Virus record (IMG/VR): IMGVR_UViG_2718218133_000001
From: a virus
Lineage: Duplodnaviria > Heunggongvirae > Uroviricota > Caudoviricetes
Direction: 5' to 3' (one strand)
Length of the DNA: 64,000 nucleotides
The translations under genes were made by a program, and so were the position numbers. Below the pieces are notes generated by a model. The model had not been told where the DNA came from. It ran no database searches and was given only the letters and a program-made list of their open reading frames with translations. Below, in pieces: positions 3,812 to 10,318 of this stretch (the stretch's first letter is position 1; the number at the start of each line of letters is the position of its first letter).

Positions 3812-4474
3812 ATGCTCGCCTGGAGGCTGAATTTGCAGCTGAGAATGAACATACCACCCAGGGCGACTAGGACTGTTTTTTGTGTCGGTAGCGGTCCGTC
3901 ACTCACTCGTGAGGACTGTGCTGCTATAGAAAAAACTGGCTGTTCAATCATCGCGGTTAACAATTCCTGGCAGATGTTCGATGACATTTATGCCTTATAC
4001 GCCGGTGATTTGTCATGGTGGAAGCAATACGGATCCACCATACCGGGAGGGAGATTCCGCAAAGTGACAGCCAACCTGGCGGCGGCGAAATCATTTTCGT
4101 TGGAGTACAGGCGATATTGTGGACCGGCGGAAGGGGTAAATAGCGGCGCGCAGGCTATCAGTCTGGCTGCTGAATCAGGGGCTGAAGTAGTGGTATTAGT
4201 CGGCTATGACTGTTCTCTGCAAAACGGCCTTCATTGGCATGGCGCGCACCCTCAAGCACTACGGAATCCAACGCAGGTGTCTATTTCAAAATGGCAACAG
4301 CAGTTCCTGGATACCCGCAAAAAACACGCAGATTTACATATTTTGAATGCAAGTAGGAGCAGTGCAATTCAATGTTTCCCAAGAATAAATTTAGAGGCAG
4401 TGATCGCGTTATTATCGTCGGCAGTGGCCCAAGCGCCGCAAACTTTGTTGCGCCGCGCGGAGTGCCGATTATAG
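3812..4474 (+). CDS. hypothetical protein, paralogue of the next gene (Rossmann-like GSGPS motif)
   Basis: VFCVGSGPS..IAVN..VNSGAQAISLA..VVLVGYD mirrors the downstream ORF; start codon uncertain; 3' end overlaps the next ORF by about 100 bp. Confidence 0.35.
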   Translation: MLAWRLNLQLRMNIPPRATRTVFCVGSGPSLTREDCAAIEKTGCSIIAVNNSWQMFDDIYALYAGDLSWWKQYGSTIPGGRFRKVTANLAAAKSFSLEYRRYCGPAEGVNSGAQAISLAAESGAEVVVLVGYDCSLQNGLHWHGAHPQALRNPTQVSISKWQQQFLDTRKKHADLHILNASRSSAIQCFPRINLEAVIALLSSAVAQAPQTLLRRAECRL

Positions 4475-4998
4475 CGGTCAATGGGGCCATCGACTGGCTT
4501 AACCGCGCTTCTTATTTTTTCACCCTTGATCCATCCCCAGACAATATGCGGCGCGTTGGTCGTGGCCGCCGTCGCCGTGGTGTTTGTTATTGCATGGCAC
4601 TACCCGATGTTAAAGAACGTGAAGTCAGAGATGGCGTTCTGTGCTTCCGTCGTGTGGCTGAACGCGGCATGGAGCCAAAAAATACGAATTCTCCCGAGTG
4701 GTGGGCGTGGCGCTGGTCCGCACATTTCGGCCTTTGCGAAGATGAGAATGAAATTGCCAGCGGCAATAGTGCATATGGTGCTCTGAACCTGGCTTTCCAT
4801 ATCGGATTCAAACATGTAGCTCTGGTGGGCGTTGACGCTACGCAAGAACTACGCGTTCACTCCGGCGGCACGCCAAAAAATCTAAGTCACCTGCCTTTGT
4901 TATTCCAGTCTGCGCGTGAACAGATTGACGTTGTTTCATGCGGGAAAATGGGAGGTATTCCGCAGATGACTCTTAAAGAATGGCTGAAGAATACATGA
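4372..4998 (+). CDS. hypothetical protein, paralogue of the previous gene
   Basis: [36 protein letters not shown]; same motif order as the upstream ORF. Confidence 0.4.
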
Positions 4999-5672
4999 TG
5001 GCACCCACAATTTATCACCGTATCGACGGTACCAAATACAGGAATGTCTGGGTTGTTGGTGATCTGCATGGTTGCTACACCAGACTGATGTCCGAACTCC
5101 ATCGTGTGGATTTTGACCCGGCGCAGGATTTACTGATATCGGTCGGCGACCTTATCGATCGCGGTACTGAAAATGTCGAATGTCTGGAACTATTGCAGAT
5201 GCCCTGGTTCAGGGCAGTGATGGGGAACCATGAGCGGTTGATGCTCGATGCGTTAAGTCCTGATGGCAACGTGAATAACTGGCTAATGAATGGCGGACAA
5301 TGGTTCTTCATGCTGGACACTGATCAGGAAATATTAGCCAGGGCGCTGGTGGAGCTGGTAAAGCGTCTGCCCTATATCATTGAGTTGAACACCGGGCAAG
5401 AAACTATCGTTATAGCCCATGCCGACTATCCGGATAATGAATACCAATTCGGTAAGGAGGTGCCGCTTTTCAACGTTGTCTGGGCGCGCGAGCGTATCAG
5501 TGATTCGATGGATGATATTGGTGGCGAAATTTCTGGCGCAGATCGTTTTATCTTTGGTCACACTCCGGTGAAAAGCCCGAAGACATTCTGGAATCAGCAG
5601 TATATCGACACTGGTGCCGTATTTTGCGGAAACCTGACATTGATGAAAGTGAAAGGTGATGGTGCAGCATGA
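4980..5672 (+). CDS. Ser/Thr protein phosphatase (calcineurin-like metallophosphoesterase, lambda-PPase type)
   Basis: Motifs GDLHG, GDLIDRG, GNHE in canonical order and spacing; P1 carries a phosphatase gene (ppp) in this general area, as remembered. Confidence 0.75.
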
Positions 5673-6370
5673 AGATTGCTTTAGTTTTTCGCTCTGGTGG
5701 TGACTATAACGCTTCCGATGTGCAGTGGCTGGTTAATCAACTGCCAAAAGGCTATGAAATTATTTGCCTGACAGACCTGAAGCGTTTACATGTACCTGGC
5801 GTCAAAGTTGTCCCATTGATCAACCAGTGGCAAAAGTGCCGTGGCTGGTGGGCGAAAATCGAGTTGTTCCGACCGGATATAACCGATGATCTGTTCTATC
5901 TGGATTTGGACACGGTTATTGCCGGTGATATACGCCCAATCCTAGAGCATCCACCAACCAGCTTCACCATGCTTAGGGATTTTTACCATCCACAATATCG
6001 TGGCAGCGGTGCCCTGTGGATACCAAATAGTGTTAAAGCGCATATCTGGAGTTCATTCTGGCAAGATCCGGAAGGTTGGATTTCTCGTTGTGTCACTACT
6101 GAGTGCTGGGGTGACCAGGGGTTCTTACGAAAGGTTATGGGCGATGATACACCAGCATTTCAGGATCTGTATCCAGGATGGTTTGTAAGTTACAAGGCCG
6201 ATGTTGTGGAACCTGGTTCAAAATATGCGAGCGCGCGTTACTCCAGGGGGAATGGGGCATTACCAAAAGACTGCCGAATAATCTTTTTCCACGGCAAACC
6301 GCGACCTCGCGAAGTGTCAGAGGATTGGCTTCCCCTTATCAGCTCATTTTTTGAGCGAGAATCAGAATAA
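5669..6370 (+). CDS. hypothetical protein
   Basis: 233-aa ORF whose ATG overlaps the phosphatase stop; followed by a strong terminator. Confidence 0.45.
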
Positions 6371-6371
6371 T

Positions 6372-6388
6372 ATTGCTCTAATAATTCC
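6372..6388 (+). promoter_or_regulatory. C1 operator-like 17-mer
   Basis: attgctctaataattcc. Confidence 0.5.
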
Positions 6389-8513: not shown

Positions 8514-8529
8514 TTGCTCTAATAAATCT
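8513..8529 (+). promoter_or_regulatory. C1 operator-like 17-mer
   Basis: attgctctaataaatct immediately after the stop of the HAD-like gene. Confidence 0.5.
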
Positions 8530-8707
8530 TGATTTTTAAAACAGAGGAAGTGAAAATAAAAACATGCCGCAAGGCGCGGCATGTATCCAATCAATCACAG
8601 GAGCTGAAAATATGAACACGGCATTCAAAATCATTATGGCCGCGATCTATTTCTGGCTGTTCTCTATCACTTTTGGCGGCATCGTCGCACATGGGTAAGG
8701 GGGATGC

Positions 8708-9436
8708 ATGAAAGGCGAAGTGAAAGAGCGCGGCATGATTTTCAACGATGAGATGGTCCGGGCCATCCTCGAAGGAAGGAAAACGCAGACGCGGCGGATA
8801 ATGAAAAATCAGCCTGCGGAAGTTGGTCCAGAAGCACCAGTGATGGTTAGAAAAATTGGTGCAGGTTTTCAGTGGTACGGGGCTGATGGTGTAAGCAGTG
8901 TTTTCAATTGCCCATTTGGTATCGTCGGCGATCGAATTTGGGTTCGTGAAACATGGGCGATATTAGGCAATGAGGATGGTTGCAGTGTGGACTGGAACGA
9001 CAACCTTTGTCGTGGCGATGAGAAGAACGCAGCAAGGATTTATCGGGCCAGTTGCGAGCAAAAACCTGGTGATTACGGCTTATGGTCGATACCCGATGAT
9101 GCCGACTGGAAACCTCACACTGTGAATGAAAAGTTTGATGGTGGGTGGCGTCCATCAATTCACATGCCGCGATGGGCATCACGCATTCTGTTGGAAATTA
9201 CCAACGTGCGCGTTGAACGGTTGAACGATATCAGCGAATGCGATGCAAGGGCTGAGGGCGTTCCGCCTGCTGGAAGTTTGCTTCCTGATCACCCGGGAAC
9301 ATTCCTTACTCCCAAGGGGGATTTCGCAATGGCCAAGGTTGCGTTCCAGCGCCTGTGGGAATCCATCTATGGTGAAGAAAGCTGGAACGCTAATCCCTGG
9401 GTGTGGGTAATCGAGTTTAAGCGCATTCAGGAATAA
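8708..9436 (+). CDS. ASCH/PUA-like domain protein (putative)
   Basis: N-terminal FNDEMVRAILEGRKTQTRR..GDRIWVRETW pattern typical of phage ASCH-like proteins; start may be an internal Met. Confidence 0.4.
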   Translation: MKGEVKERGMIFNDEMVRAILEGRKTQTRRIMKNQPAEVGPEAPVMVRKIGAGFQWYGADGVSSVFNCPFGIVGDRIWVRETWAILGNEDGCSVDWNDNLCRGDEKNAARIYRASCEQKPGDYGLWSIPDDADWKPHTVNEKFDGGWRPSIHMPRWASRILLEITNVRVERLNDISECDARAEGVPPAGSLLPDHPGTFLTPKGDFAMAKVAFQRLWESIYGEESWNANPWVWVIEFKRIQE

Positions 9437-9439
9437 ACC

Positions 9440-10318
9440 GTGAGTATGCATCAAGTCGTCAGCTTTTCAGGTGGACGAACATCGGCTTATCTCGTTCATC
9501 TGATGGAAGCACAGCGAAAAGCTGGCGCTAGCGTCCATTTCATTTTTATGGATACCGGCTGTGAACATCCTCTGACGTATCGCTTTATTCGTGAGGTTGT
9601 GAAGTTCTGGAACGTACCGCTAACGGTGTTGCAGGTCGATATAAATCCAGAACTTGGGCAGCCAAATGGTTATACGGAATGGGAACCAAAGGATATTCAG
9701 ACGCGAATGCCGGTGCTTAAACCGTTTATGGACATGGTTAAAAAGTACGGTACGCCATACATCGGCGGCGCGTTCTGTACCGACAGGCTAAAACTCACCC
9801 CTTTCACGAAATATTGCGATGACCATTTTGGGCGAGGGAATTACATCACATGGCTCGGTATTCGTGCGGACGAACCCCGTAGGCTGAAACCGAAACCGGG
9901 CGTCCGGTATCTTGCCGAACTGTCAGATTTTGATAAGTCGGATGTTATCCGGTGGTGGCGAAAACAACCTTTTGATTTGCAAATCCCGGAGCACCTCGGG
10001 AACTGTGTTTTTTGCATCAAAAAGTCAACGCAAAAGCTGGGGCTTGCATGTAAAGACGAACCAGGTCTGATGCGGGTTTTTAATGAACTGGTTACAGGCA
10101 AACACGTCAGGGATGGTCATCGCAGAACAGGTAAAGACGTTATGTACCGTGGCCACCTGACGCTTGACGGGATTGCCAGAATGTATGCCGACAGTGACTA
10201 CAGAAATTTGTATCAGGCGATGGTGCTGGCCAAGCGGTTTGATACTGGTTCGTGTTCCGAATCATGTGAAATCTGGGGTGACCAATTGGAGTTGAAATTC
10301 GAAGAGGTAGTGGAATGA
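9440..10318 (+). CDS. PAPS-reductase-like PP-loop ATP pyrophosphatase family protein
   Basis: N-terminal SFSGGRTS PP-loop motif; GTG start in the track, ATG two codons downstream. Confidence 0.65.
   Translation: MSMHQVVSFSGGRTSAYLVHLMEAQRKAGASVHFIFMDTGCEHPLTYRFIREVVKFWNVPLTVLQVDINPELGQPNGYTEWEPKDIQTRMPVLKPFMDMVKKYGTPYIGGAFCTDRLKLTPFTKYCDDHFGRGNYITWLGIRADEPRRLKPKPGVRYLAELSDFDKSDVIRWWRKQPFDLQIPEHLGNCVFCIKKSTQKLGLACKDEPGLMRVFNELVTGKHVRDGHRRTGKDVMYRGHLTLDGIARMYADSDYRNLYQAMVLAKRFDTGSCSESCEIWGDQLELKFEEVVE

Follow-up and report, generated by a model that had tools for sequence, protein, structure and literature searches.

The closest described counterpart of this locus is the pmgN–pmgT region of phage P1 (NC_005856 79.4-85.4 kb), as annotated by Łobocka et al. 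2004. In a CRISPRi screen, none of pmgO, pmgP, ppp, pmgQ, pmgS, pap or pmgT scores as essential, and CRISPRi and deletion disagree on the essentiality of pmgN (PMC10695390). Knockout and complementation, by comparison, show that head completion requires pmgR (PMC9024508). Published P1 knockouts of these genes leave plaquing unaffected, pmgR excepted, and anti-restriction stays intact on EcoK, EcoA and EcoB hosts.

The window, the whole 64,000-nucleotide stretch analysed here, carries this region almost unchanged. Between positions 3600 and 9402 it is 99% identical to P1 at the nucleotide level and shares the genes, their order and the C1 operators. This part contains pmgN, pmgO, pmgP, ppp, pmgQ, pmgR, pmgS, pap and pmgT. 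E. coli plasmids carry exact matches to the whole arrangement, ninC included, and are 99.9% identical to it. The interval thus comprises an accessory segment of a P1-type phage-plasmid, pmgN–pmgT, which is already annotated and for the most part dispensable, and in addition a lambda NinC gene. It differs from P1 in that the pmgT product has 242 rather than 309 aa, and in that pmgU, pmgV and upfM-O give way to ninC, two small ORFs and Ea22-like and DUF551-like genes of lambdoid origin; ninC sits in the known hypervariable pmgT–humD region. In this known locus, the residual novelty is a predicted glycosylation trio, PmgO/PmgP/PmgQ.

An earlier note, written from the letters of this DNA, had described an accessory enzyme cluster here. 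The open reading frames it listed all exist on the plus strand at the positions tabulated below and are 97-99% identical to annotated P1/P7-type genes, and domain searches bear out its lambda-type Ser/Thr phosphatase (Ppp), HAD-like phosphatase (Pap) and PP-loop PAPS-reductase-like protein (NinC). The genes it named are real, but its list omits pmgQ, pmgR and pmgS, which make up 2.2 kb of the interval.

Table. Positions of genes, control elements and the mosaic junction in the window, with supporting evidence
Feature	Position	Strand	Evidence or description
C1 operator Oppp (former Op83)	3655..3671	-	4 mismatches to consensus; matches P1 annotation (L001 4056-4072); overlaps predicted promoter PpmgN
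pmgN, small ORF	3715..3870	+	P1 annotation; present in 80/80 P1-like loci
pmgO	3812..4474	+	DUF115 / MptE-like; Maf- and CstI-sialyltransferase-like fold; GSGPSL motif
pmgP	4372..4998	+	distant PmgO paralogue; GSGPS motif; WaaZ-like; PF01973 3.4e-4; phrog_2111 2.7e-132
ppp, lambda NinI-type Ser/Thr metallophosphatase	4980..5672	+	Metallophos 8.7e-16; NinI-like PHROG 5e-113; PrpA/PrpB models 6e-82
pmgQ	5669..6370	+	GT8-like retaining glycosyltransferase; DxD (D79, D81); C-terminal FHG-x-PRP; phrog_1962 'glycosyltransferase' 2.5e-128
C1 operator OpmgRa	6372..6388	+	P1 annotation and operator search
promoter PpmgR	within 6372..6437		with OpmgRa/OpmgRb
C1 operator OpmgRb	6421..6437	-	P1 annotation and operator search
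pmgR	6452..6670	+	P1 annotation
pmgS, coiled-coil protein	6672..7934	+	phrog_1660 1.4e-195; other matches are weak SMC-like coiled-coil
intrinsic-terminator-like hairpin, 3' of pmgS	7954..7982	+	11-bp stem, then T run
pap, HAD phosphatase, polynucleotide-kinase 3'-phosphatase type	8007..8513	+	HAD_PNKP 2.1e-12; phrog_415 1e-56; DIDGT motif
C1 operator OpmgT (former Op88)	8513..8529	+	1 mismatch to consensus
pmgT allele, 242 aa	8708..9436	+	ASCH fold; long insertion, residues 83-158; motif G23-R-K25-T-Q-T28-R-R30
mosaic junction	9402..9441		P1 homology stops at 9402; Stx/Oslo-type lambdoid phage homology from 9441
lambda NinC orthologue, variable cargo	9440..10318	+	PAPS_reduct 2.8e-9; PP-loop SFSGGRTS

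Operator-like sites are far more frequent in the window than chance predicts (13 observed, 0.31 expected). The genes had been thought to be framed by C1 operators; the operators are indeed present, but they head internal transcription units, and the right end has no operator to close it, the next one lying at 18372. Because the C1 operators and a strong terminator divide the region, it comprises at least four transcription units. The first, under Oppp, would express pmgN, pmgO, pmgP, ppp and pmgQ and hold the sole module conserved as a unit, while the second, under OpmgRa/OpmgRb, would express pmgR and pmgS and be morphogenetic. The third would consist of pap alone, and the fourth, under OpmgT, would begin with pmgT and continue into lambdoid-phage cargo starting with the NinC orthologue. 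Taken as a whole, the interval is probably best explained as a mosaic of independent modules, with at least four separately controlled units, and not as a single pathway.

PmgO is a distant paralogue of PmgP, and both have a Maf/CstI-sialyltransferase/MptE fold. The proposed paralogy of this GSGPS pair holds between family profiles, which match each other at 1e-4 to 1e-9, but is only distant, since direct BLASTP gives E = 0.003 across 36 residues. Both proteins match PF01973 weakly; the top fold match of PmgO is a flagellin glycosyltransferase, and PmgP matches E. coli WaaZ by BLASTP at 1e-4. The true start of pmgO probably lies near 3845. Compared with Maf, the GT42 sialyltransferases (CstI/CstII) and WaaZ, each protein consists of the catalytic domain only (~200 aa), lacking the domains that flank it in the 632-aa Maf chain, and the two form a diverged pair that is accompanied by a GT8 enzyme. 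Genes for flagellin or nonulosonate synthesis are absent from the neighbourhood of pmgO/pmgP. On another reading, the two would not be glycosyltransferases but MptE/thiamine-pyrophosphokinase-type pyrophosphokinases or SteA-like regulators with a small-molecule substrate, which we consider unlikely.

A natural O-P fusion, protein P0171, joins a PmgP part (49% identity, E 2e-63) to a PmgO-like domain, and a PmgQ homologue follows it. The fusion also has faint PF01973 and PF27901 WaaZ_KDO_III matches, each of which may lie in either half. This fusion suggests that PmgO and PmgP act together, and the two would cooperate as transferases of a CMP-activated keto-sugar, which in E. coli K-12 would be Kdo. 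A preprint reports that Maf enzymes can attach Kdo to Ser/Thr by an O-linkage (bioRxiv 10.1101/2020.06.03.131540).

PmgQ alone matches no Pfam model above threshold. Its family profile matches the GT8 structures 6mw5 (5.6e-7), glycogenin (3.6e-6) and 5gvv (1.6e-4), and LgtC only weakly. With GT8 enzymes (glycogenin, Skp1 alpha-galactosyltransferase, 5gvv, LgtC) this profile shares the catalytic domain, the DxD and a C-terminal His-containing motif; D79, D81 and FHG-x-PRP come from invariant residues of the family. PmgQ is shorter than these enzymes (~230 aa), and its predicted role is to add UDP-hexose.

The trio is kept in unrelated phages and in bacteria from several phyla, in one case as the O-P fusion. 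Of 25 loci examined by profile search, 18 hold all three genes, and the full trio occurs in Pseudomonas, Zhongshania, Alloalcanivorax, Brevundimonas, Sinomicrobium, jumbo phage XacN1 and phage IME392, among others; in a C. rodentium lambdoid prophage the three are contiguous. Among 21 loci scored for the other genes, homologues of Ppp, Pap and PmgT occur only in the three P1-like loci and NinC homologues in none (0/21); where the trio lies in a non-P1 locus of this set, it stands without any of the four. As an insertion between pmgP and pmgQ, ppp is restricted to P1-type elements.

Gene context offers several clues to the acceptor. In two prophages the module directly follows the gene for the major capsid protein, in three it comes after the lysis cassette, and in two bacterial genera it is set among Big_1/intimin-type adhesin genes. 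In XacN1 and Sinomicrobium it adjoins ribonucleotide reductase, in IME392 it lies near DNA ligase, and in P1 it is controlled by the early repressor C1. The most plausible acceptor would be a protein (a virion protein, or an Ig-like surface protein for the bacterial copies), with the LPS core ranked second. Since the context is not uniform, given ribonucleotide reductase, DNA ligase and C1 control, a virion protein is only the leading guess. Glycosylation terms are absent from the P1 virion proteomics and cryo-EM literature searched.

If the LPS core were the target instead, the core glucose serving as P1 receptor would be changed by a Kdo transferase of the WaaZ type together with a GT8 hexosyltransferase, limiting superinfection or progeny loss on cell debris. 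The WaaZ_KDO_III match of the fusion and the WaaZ match of PmgP fit this idea, and WaaO and WaaJ, which act on the LPS core, belong to GT8. Expression of the P1 genes from an early promoter under C1 repression likewise suits a host-directed function, and the site 3' of the lysis genes in lambdoid prophages is a classical moron site. However, the top GT8 matches are protein-directed (Skp1 galactosyltransferase, glycogenin, 5gvv), as is the flagellin glycosyltransferase that best matches PmgO, and the capsid-gene and adhesin-gene neighbourhoods point away from LPS. In addition, LPS already in place in the outer membrane would be expected to escape modification within a single lytic cycle. LPS remodelling is rather unlikely on balance, and protein glycosylation is the preferred reading of the trio.

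The remaining enzymes belong to other families. Ppp is a full-length metallophosphatase of the type of lambda NinI (lambda protein phosphatase). Pap shares the HAD_PNKP domain and DxDxT motif of the T4 polynucleotide kinase 3'-phosphatase domain, but has no kinase domain.

PmgT had been called ASCH-like, and structure comparison agrees, although it has no Pfam match, nor a significant one to the ASCH model. All of the top 15 PDB matches of its AlphaFold model in Foldseek are ASCH proteins, YqfB (9kyf) scoring E 9e-3 with probability 1.0; the E-values are weak and model confidence is low (pLDDT 63, below 50 in the insertion). In hhalign, PmgT residues 10-30 pair with YqfB 6-26, and NCBI names some PmgT homologues 'ASCH domain-containing'. 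PmgT shares the ASCH fold and the YqfB-type octapeptide with E. coli YqfB and other ASCH N4-acetylcytidine amidohydrolases or tRNA ac4C erasers. The Lys, Thr and Arg of this G-x-K-x-x-T-x-R octapeptide are conserved across the PmgT family, and mutagenesis of YqfB shows that K21, T24 and R26 are required. PmgT is longer than YqfB (242 against 103 aa), with a conserved 75-residue Cys/Trp-rich insertion in the low-confidence part of the model and a C-terminal extension. By analogy, it is probably an ASCH-fold hydrolase that takes an N4-acyl group off cytidine or tRNA.

The NinC gene product is 80% identical to lambda NinC, for which the literature searched gives no assigned function, and 96% identical to an Ss-VASD homologue. 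It shares a PP-loop N-terminal domain and conserved cysteines with lambda NinC, SspD/DndC and PAPS/APS reductases: C113, C189 and C192 are invariant in a six-sequence alignment, and C281/C285 are also conserved. Its nearest relatives in defence systems are SspD (best, 1.8e-13) and DndC, with only the N-terminal ~70-150 residues matching PAPS reductase or SspD models. Unlike SspD and DndC, which belong to DNA phosphorothioation systems, it is solitary, without SspA/B/C or DndA/D/E partners. Related NinC proteins of other phages are fused to DNA methyltransferases or encoded beside them. This PP-loop, cysteine-rich protein probably adenylates, and may thiolate, a nucleic-acid or nucleotide substrate.

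The earlier note took the 6.5 kb for one functional cluster with a possible nucleic-acid role. Such a role fits PmgT and NinC, whose families act on nucleic acids or nucleosides; a single cluster is not supported. As one coordinated modification or anti-restriction pathway, the GSGPS pair, phosphatases, ASCH and PAPS-reductase-like proteins would act serially on phage DNA or RNA. All genes do share a strand and C1 control, ASCH proteins recognise modified cytidines, and NinC has its methyltransferase and SspD/DndC connections. Yet the region is broken up by four C1 operators and a strong terminator, the GSGPS proteins keep company with PmgQ rather than with the phosphatases, PmgT or NinC, and ninC is present in 4/80 P1-like contigs, absent from P1 and cleanly deleted, in frame, in close relatives. 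Moreover, 79 of 80 diverse PmgT loci have no NinC nearby, the interval contains no hydroxymethyl-pyrimidine synthase, and hypermodified bases are not known from P1 DNA. The knockouts once suggested as a check on restriction sensitivity largely exist for P1, and their lack of an anti-restriction defect speaks against a pathway that now seems scarcely probable.

A narrower proposal is an RNA-directed host-takeover or RNA-repair set that would have host or phage tRNA as its substrate, with Pap as 3'-phosphatase, Ppp as phosphoesterase, PmgT as ac4C eraser and NinC as a thiolase-like PP-loop enzyme. Fe-S-cluster PP-loop enzymes do thiolate tRNA, Pap matches a polynucleotide kinase phosphatase domain and Ppp weakly matches bacterial Pnkp. 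A preprint also reports that 19/19 ASCH proteins tested deacetylate tRNA ac4C. The four genes nevertheless lie in different transcription units, with no kinase or ligase partner in the interval, NinC is optional, and co-occurrence is not seen outside P1-type elements among the 80 diverse PmgT loci and the 21 profile-searched loci. We regard this set as very unlikely, and independent modules remain the preferred explanation.

Pairs of PAPS-reductase-like and ASCH-like genes, said earlier to recur in phages, do occur, but weakly: in 1/80 diverse PmgT loci, 4/44 P1-like loci and 12/80 NinC loci. In 12 contigs with three different pmgT alleles, pmgT abuts ninC at identical spacing, an arrangement that favours the single pathway to that extent and makes some pmgT–ninC linkage possible.

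The interval is an already known, annotated and largely dispensable part of a P1-type phage-plasmid, because window 3600-9402 aligns with bacteriophage P1 (NC_005856, 79380-85182) at 99% identity over 5.8 kb in matching gene order, the P1 record already names its genes (pmgN, pmgO, pmgP, ppp, pmgQ, pmgR, pmgS, pap and pmgT), and several E. coli plasmids carry the entire arrangement, PAPS-reductase-like gene included, at 99.9% identity. P7, SJ46, RCS47 and other Punavirus genomes are likewise 99% identical to window 3600-9402. The C1 operators placed in the P1 record (Oppp, OpmgRa, OpmgRb and OpmgT) are located in the window too, so that near-identical nucleotides, gene order and operators together identify the Punavirus pmgN-pmgT segment. 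All the ORFs listed in the earlier note were found at the coordinates it gave, and its gene families were guessed correctly, as domain searches show for the phosphatases and the PAPS reductase, and fold and motif for the ASCH protein. P1 serves as the standard phage for transduction in E. coli, and resistance genes are commonly found on P1-like phage-plasmids; even so, some 6 kb of the conserved early genes of P1 still lacks an assigned function. The annotated start of pmgO overlaps pmgN by 59 nt (window 3812-3870), homologues start approximately 17-20 residues later, and the structure model of PmgO is disordered ahead of residue 20; the ATG at 3845 is more likely to be the real start.

Genes and other features of the segment, in window coordinates
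Feature	Coordinates	Remark
C1 operator	3655-3671	
pmgO	3812-4474	(+), GSGPS protein
pmgP	4372-4998	(+), GSGPS protein
ppp	4980-5672	(+), NinI homologue
pmgQ	5669-6370	(+)
C1 operator	6372-6388	
C1 operator	6421-6437	
pmgR	6452-6670	(+)
pmgS	6672-7934	(+)
Terminator-like hairpin	7954-7982	between pmgS and pap; strong; 11-bp stem, then T run
pap	8007-8513	(+)
C1 operator	8513-8529	
pmgT	8708-9436	(+)
Insertion in PmgT	8954-9181	residues 83-158
ninC	9440-10318	(+), PAPS-reductase-like, 292 aa
Segment lost from ninC in relatives	9509-10297	789 bp

The C1 operators, together with the terminator past pmgS, divide the region into at least four units: pmgN-pmgQ, pmgR-pmgS, pap, and pmgT onward. Because the hairpin separates pmgS from pap, pap is presumably not simply co-transcribed with pmgR-pmgS. 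The proposed framing by C1 operators holds only in part, since operators are present but the right-hand end of the interval has none. The sequence changes origin within the interval: P1 homology ends at 9402, and a match to an Stx/Oslo-type lambdoid early-left region starts at 9441, running through the PAPS-reductase gene, two small ORFs, an Ea22-like gene and a DUF551-like gene. Published work describes the pmgT-humD stretch of P1-like phage-plasmids as hypervariable. Gene frequencies were counted in the P1-like contigs returned by a viral-contig scan with the PmgP alignment, which yielded P1-like contigs only. Among these 80 contigs, pmgN, pmgO, pmgP and ppp are present in every one (80/80), pmgQ, pmgR, pmgS and pap in 72-77, pmgT at 80% coverage or more in 45, and ninC in 4. 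The single modification or takeover cluster first suggested is thus not supported, since operators and terminator split the region, ninC occurs in 4/80 contigs, and pmgO, pmgP and pmgQ form a separate group. Both phosphatases, as well as PmgT and NinC, count as separable cargo.

In two close relatives, 813R1 (vB_EcoM-813R1) and Ro157c2YLVW, exactly 789 bp of ninC is gone, equal to 263 codons and in frame. The joint has an overlap of about 6 bp (compare contig L002, 8899-8904) and a short ninC remnant stays; from the sequence, the loss looks like a microhomology-mediated deletion. A ninC remnant was also considered for the extra 70 residues of P1 PmgT and rejected, as there is no nucleotide similarity past window 9402. 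Two lambda nin-region homologues, Ppp (NinI) and NinC, sit on one P1 backbone, and viral contigs L013 and L016 carry a Ppp-like gene two genes upstream of pmgT; together these arrangements suggest that P1-like and lambdoid phages have exchanged genes repeatedly.

The conserved functional unit within the interval is pmgO, pmgP and pmgQ, because these three genes co-occur while Ppp, Pap, PmgT and NinC do not accompany them. The comparison used 25 loci from a one-genome-per-species scan and contig look-ups, which supplied the diversity that the PmgP-alignment scan of viral contigs did not. They cover Enterobacterales, Pseudomonas, Zhongshania, Alloalcanivorax, Microbulbifer, Methylophilaceae, Brevundimonas, Sinomicrobium (Bacteroidota) and Longimicrobiales, together with phage IME392 and jumbo phage XacN1. 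The full trio was found in 18 of the 25, and the remainder are mostly short or truncated contigs. Among the 21 loci scored for cargo, homologues of Ppp, Pap and PmgT appear only in the three P1-like ones, and NinC homologues in none. The ppp gene is an insertion between pmgP and pmgQ in P1-type elements. A podovirus-like metagenomic contig (L085) encodes a 376-aa protein (8001-9131) in which a PmgO-like and a PmgP-like domain are naturally fused; the C-terminal half of this protein shares 49% identity with PmgP (E 2e-63), and a PmgQ homologue (9128-9757) comes immediately after it. Next on the same contig is a fourth protein, a small one that contains the DxD-like motif WVDCDG. The question is thereby narrowed to a single module whose conservation extends over several bacterial phyla.

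The setting of the module varies. Two prophages, one in Pseudomonas and one in Zhongshania, have it right behind the major capsid gene, in the order terminase, portal, protease, capsid, O, P, Q. It follows the lysis cassette in Citrobacter rodentium, Alloalcanivorax and the fusion contig, and in the C. rodentium lambdoid prophage the three contiguous genes have the lysis cassette on one side and the terminase on the other. XacN1 and Sinomicrobium place it beside ribonucleotide reductase, and IME392 near DNA ligase. Two unrelated prophages (L179, 6570-7139; L189, 8573-9133) carry a SAM-dependent methyltransferase gene inside the module; its product might add a methyl group to the sugar that is transferred. 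On the chromosomes of Pseudescherichia and Serratia (L187, 3366-13359; L088, 7001-9442), the three genes are interleaved with several Big_1 or intimin-invasin adhesin genes, which may encode the acceptor proteins.

Sequence profiles and structural models suggest that the three proteins make up a conserved glycosyltransferase-type trio, a new point about this segment. PmgO and PmgP, which the earlier note described as paralogues, are only distant kin (BLASTP E = 0.003 across 36 residues; profile cross-matches of 1e-4 to 1e-9). Both match PF01973 (MptE-like) weakly, scoring 23.4 and 20.9 bits where the curated threshold is 34.6, although a precomputed PF01973 match exists for many homologues of each. 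Single-sequence and profile searches of PmgO and PmgT against PDB sequences gave only noise, so fold comparison was required. PmgO and PmgP share the fold common to Maf, MptE and CstI: the best relative is the Maf flagellin glycosyltransferase (score 14.1, 164 residues aligned), followed by the archaeal pterin pyrophosphokinase MptE (11.4), the Campylobacter sialyltransferase CstI (10.9), SteA (10.7) and thiamine pyrophosphokinases (8-10). These relatives bear out the idea that GSGPS is the nucleotide-binding loop of a Rossmann-like fold, and the modelled fold places the family with keto-sugar transferases and pyrophosphokinases, not with dinucleotide-dependent enzymes.

PmgQ, encoded between ppp and pmgR, is a GT8 protein that was absent from the earlier list. 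Its single sequences gave no Pfam match at threshold, yet its profile matches the solved GT8 structures of Skp1 alpha-galactosyltransferase (6mw5, 5.6e-7), glycogenin (3.6e-6) and a pneumococcal GT8 enzyme (5gvv, 1.6e-4). The family has an invariant DxD motif (D79, D81) and C-terminal H208, so that GT-A domain, DxD and C-terminal His motif assign it to GT8 at the profile level.

In the proposed mechanism, PmgO and PmgP would form a heteromeric Maf/WaaZ-like transferase of a keto-sugar (Kdo or a nonulosonate), and PmgQ would carry out a GT8 hexosyltransferase step. The trio would decorate virion proteins in Gram-negative phages, including P1, and Big_1 or intimin-type adhesins in some bacteria. 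That it constitutes an unrecognised, widespread three-enzyme system for protein O-glycosylation is a tentative proposal, possible but short of probable. The best structural relatives are protein-directed transferases, and a preprint reports that Maf enzymes are able to attach Kdo or Neu5Ac to Ser/Thr by an O-linkage (bioRxiv 10.1101/2020.06.03.131540). For these two reasons we infer that protein ranks first as acceptor. Action on the LPS core, ranked second, is rather improbable; it draws on a faint WaaZ family match, a motif match between PmgP and WaaZ, and the part that GT8 enzymes also play in LPS core synthesis. Profile comparisons were weak both for PmgO against E. coli WaaZ and for PmgT against YqfB (probabilities of 8-11% and E of about 0.003-0.004), and they serve as motif alignments only. 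Glycosylation of P1 DNA by the trio was rejected: the substrates of phage DNA glycosyltransferases are 5-hydroxymethyl pyrimidines, whose synthesis takes dedicated enzymes, and such enzymes are absent from the interval. Literature searches on experiments with PmgO, PmgP, PmgQ and PmgT or on P1 virion glycans yielded essentiality data only.

Phage virion glycosylation has so far been documented mainly in mycobacteriophages. If a virion protein is what the trio glycosylates, such glycosylation would extend to phages of Gram-negative hosts, with consequences for how the immune system recognises therapeutic phages; should the LPS core be the target instead, the module would represent a new receptor-masking mechanism.

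Published genetics bears on a role in anti-restriction. P1 single-gene knockouts have been plated on r-m-, EcoK+, EcoA+ and EcoB+ hosts, and 24 of 29 show neither a plaquing defect nor an anti-restriction change (PMC9024508). CRISPRi scores pmgO, pmgP, ppp, pmgQ, pmgS, pap, pmgT, pmgU and pmgV as non-essential (PMC10695390). The knockout check suggested earlier thus finds no anti-restriction change in the P1-shared genes, and such a role is disfavoured for them with respect to these three type I systems. A defence-system reading of the interval was dropped because PADLOC models gave no match to PmgO, PmgP, Ppp, PmgQ, Pap or PmgT.

Among the cargo, Ppp is a NinI or lambda-phosphatase-type enzyme (Metallophos 8.7e-16; NinI-like PHROG 5e-113; PrpA/PrpB models to 6e-82), and Pap matches polynucleotide kinase in its HAD phosphatase domain (2e-12) and has a DIDGT motif. 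The ASCH assignment of PmgT stands by fold and motif but not by sequence threshold, since neither the Pfam ASCH model nor any other family matches at E <= 0.1. Its AlphaFold model, built with 26 homologues, is of moderate quality (pLDDT 63), with a good core and a poor insertion at residues 83-158. In Foldseek against the PDB, all 15 best matches are ASCH proteins, including YqfB, EF3133, 3s9x, ZmASCH and PH0355 (probability up to 1.0; TM-score to target 0.66-0.74 for YqfB), which places PmgT in the ASCH beta-barrel fold. Residues 10-30 align with YqfB 6-26, in a weak profile comparison used as a motif alignment, and G23-R-K25-T-Q-T28-R-R30 falls on YqfB G19…R26, so PmgT carries the threonine-type ASCH octapeptide G-x-K-x-x-(E/T)-x-R. 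The PmgT alignment shows G23, T28 and R30 to be invariant, with conservation of 90% or more at K25; in YqfB the Lys, Thr and Arg of the octapeptide are required.

The insertion that breaks the ASCH fold of PmgT is a highly conserved 75-residue element (LGNEDGC…YRASCEQ…YGLWS…WRPSIHMPRW) with invariant Cys, Trp and His; AlphaFold failed to model it, and its role may be to bind a metal or to recognise the substrate. PmgT homologues elsewhere lie in lambdoid early-left regions, with neighbours that by eye we take to be RecT, YqaJ exonuclease, Dam and MT-A70 methyltransferases, and integrase.

NinC scores 37.7 bits against the PAPS_reduct cut-off of 22.5, conserves the PP-loop SFSGGRTS across its alignment, and is the orthologue of lambda NinC, the product of the gene after ninB (80% identity over 98% of length). 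In an alignment of six sequences with identities down to 29%, C113, C189 and C192 do not vary, and C281 and C285 occur in most of its members. Its best defence-system match is SspD (1.8e-13), with BrxP and DndC weaker, and PADLOC found none of the Ssp or Dnd partners (cysteine desulfurase, ATPase, DNA-binding or nicking component), hence no phosphorothioation system, among the other nine proteins scanned at 3.8-13.2 kb. NinC homologues occur in 581 phage genomes. The one in Vibrio phage 44E38.1 forms a fusion protein with a Dam methyltransferase (L272, 2501-3940), another adjoins a putative DNA methyltransferase in Riemerella phage PJR4 (L274, 2176-3301), and a third adjoins ThyX and a nucleoside 2-deoxyribosyltransferase in the Chi-like Salmonella phage FSL SP-030 (L273, 2477-3834). 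A nucleic acid or nucleotide is a plausible substrate. The idea of nucleic-acid modification, first applied to the whole cluster, therefore survives as plausible for ninC alone, on the SspD match and the methyltransferase fusion and neighbours.

The pairing of ASCH and PAPS-reductase genes was said to recur in phages. Searched with the PmgT subfamily of ASCH proteins only, pmgT lies immediately upstream in 12/80 NinC loci, as three diverged alleles with the same 3-nt spacer, a NinC homologue lies within 5 kb in 1/80 diverse viral PmgT loci, and both genes are present in 4/44 P1-like loci. By these counts the pair recurs within one lineage, and carrying one of the two genes does not entail carrying the other. 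In many lambdoid NinC loci (L191-L270), the upstream ORF, ending just before position 3001, encodes a 182-199-aa protein with MSFIKTFSGKHFYYDK near its start, which we take to resemble the YfdR HD-domain 5'-nucleotidase.
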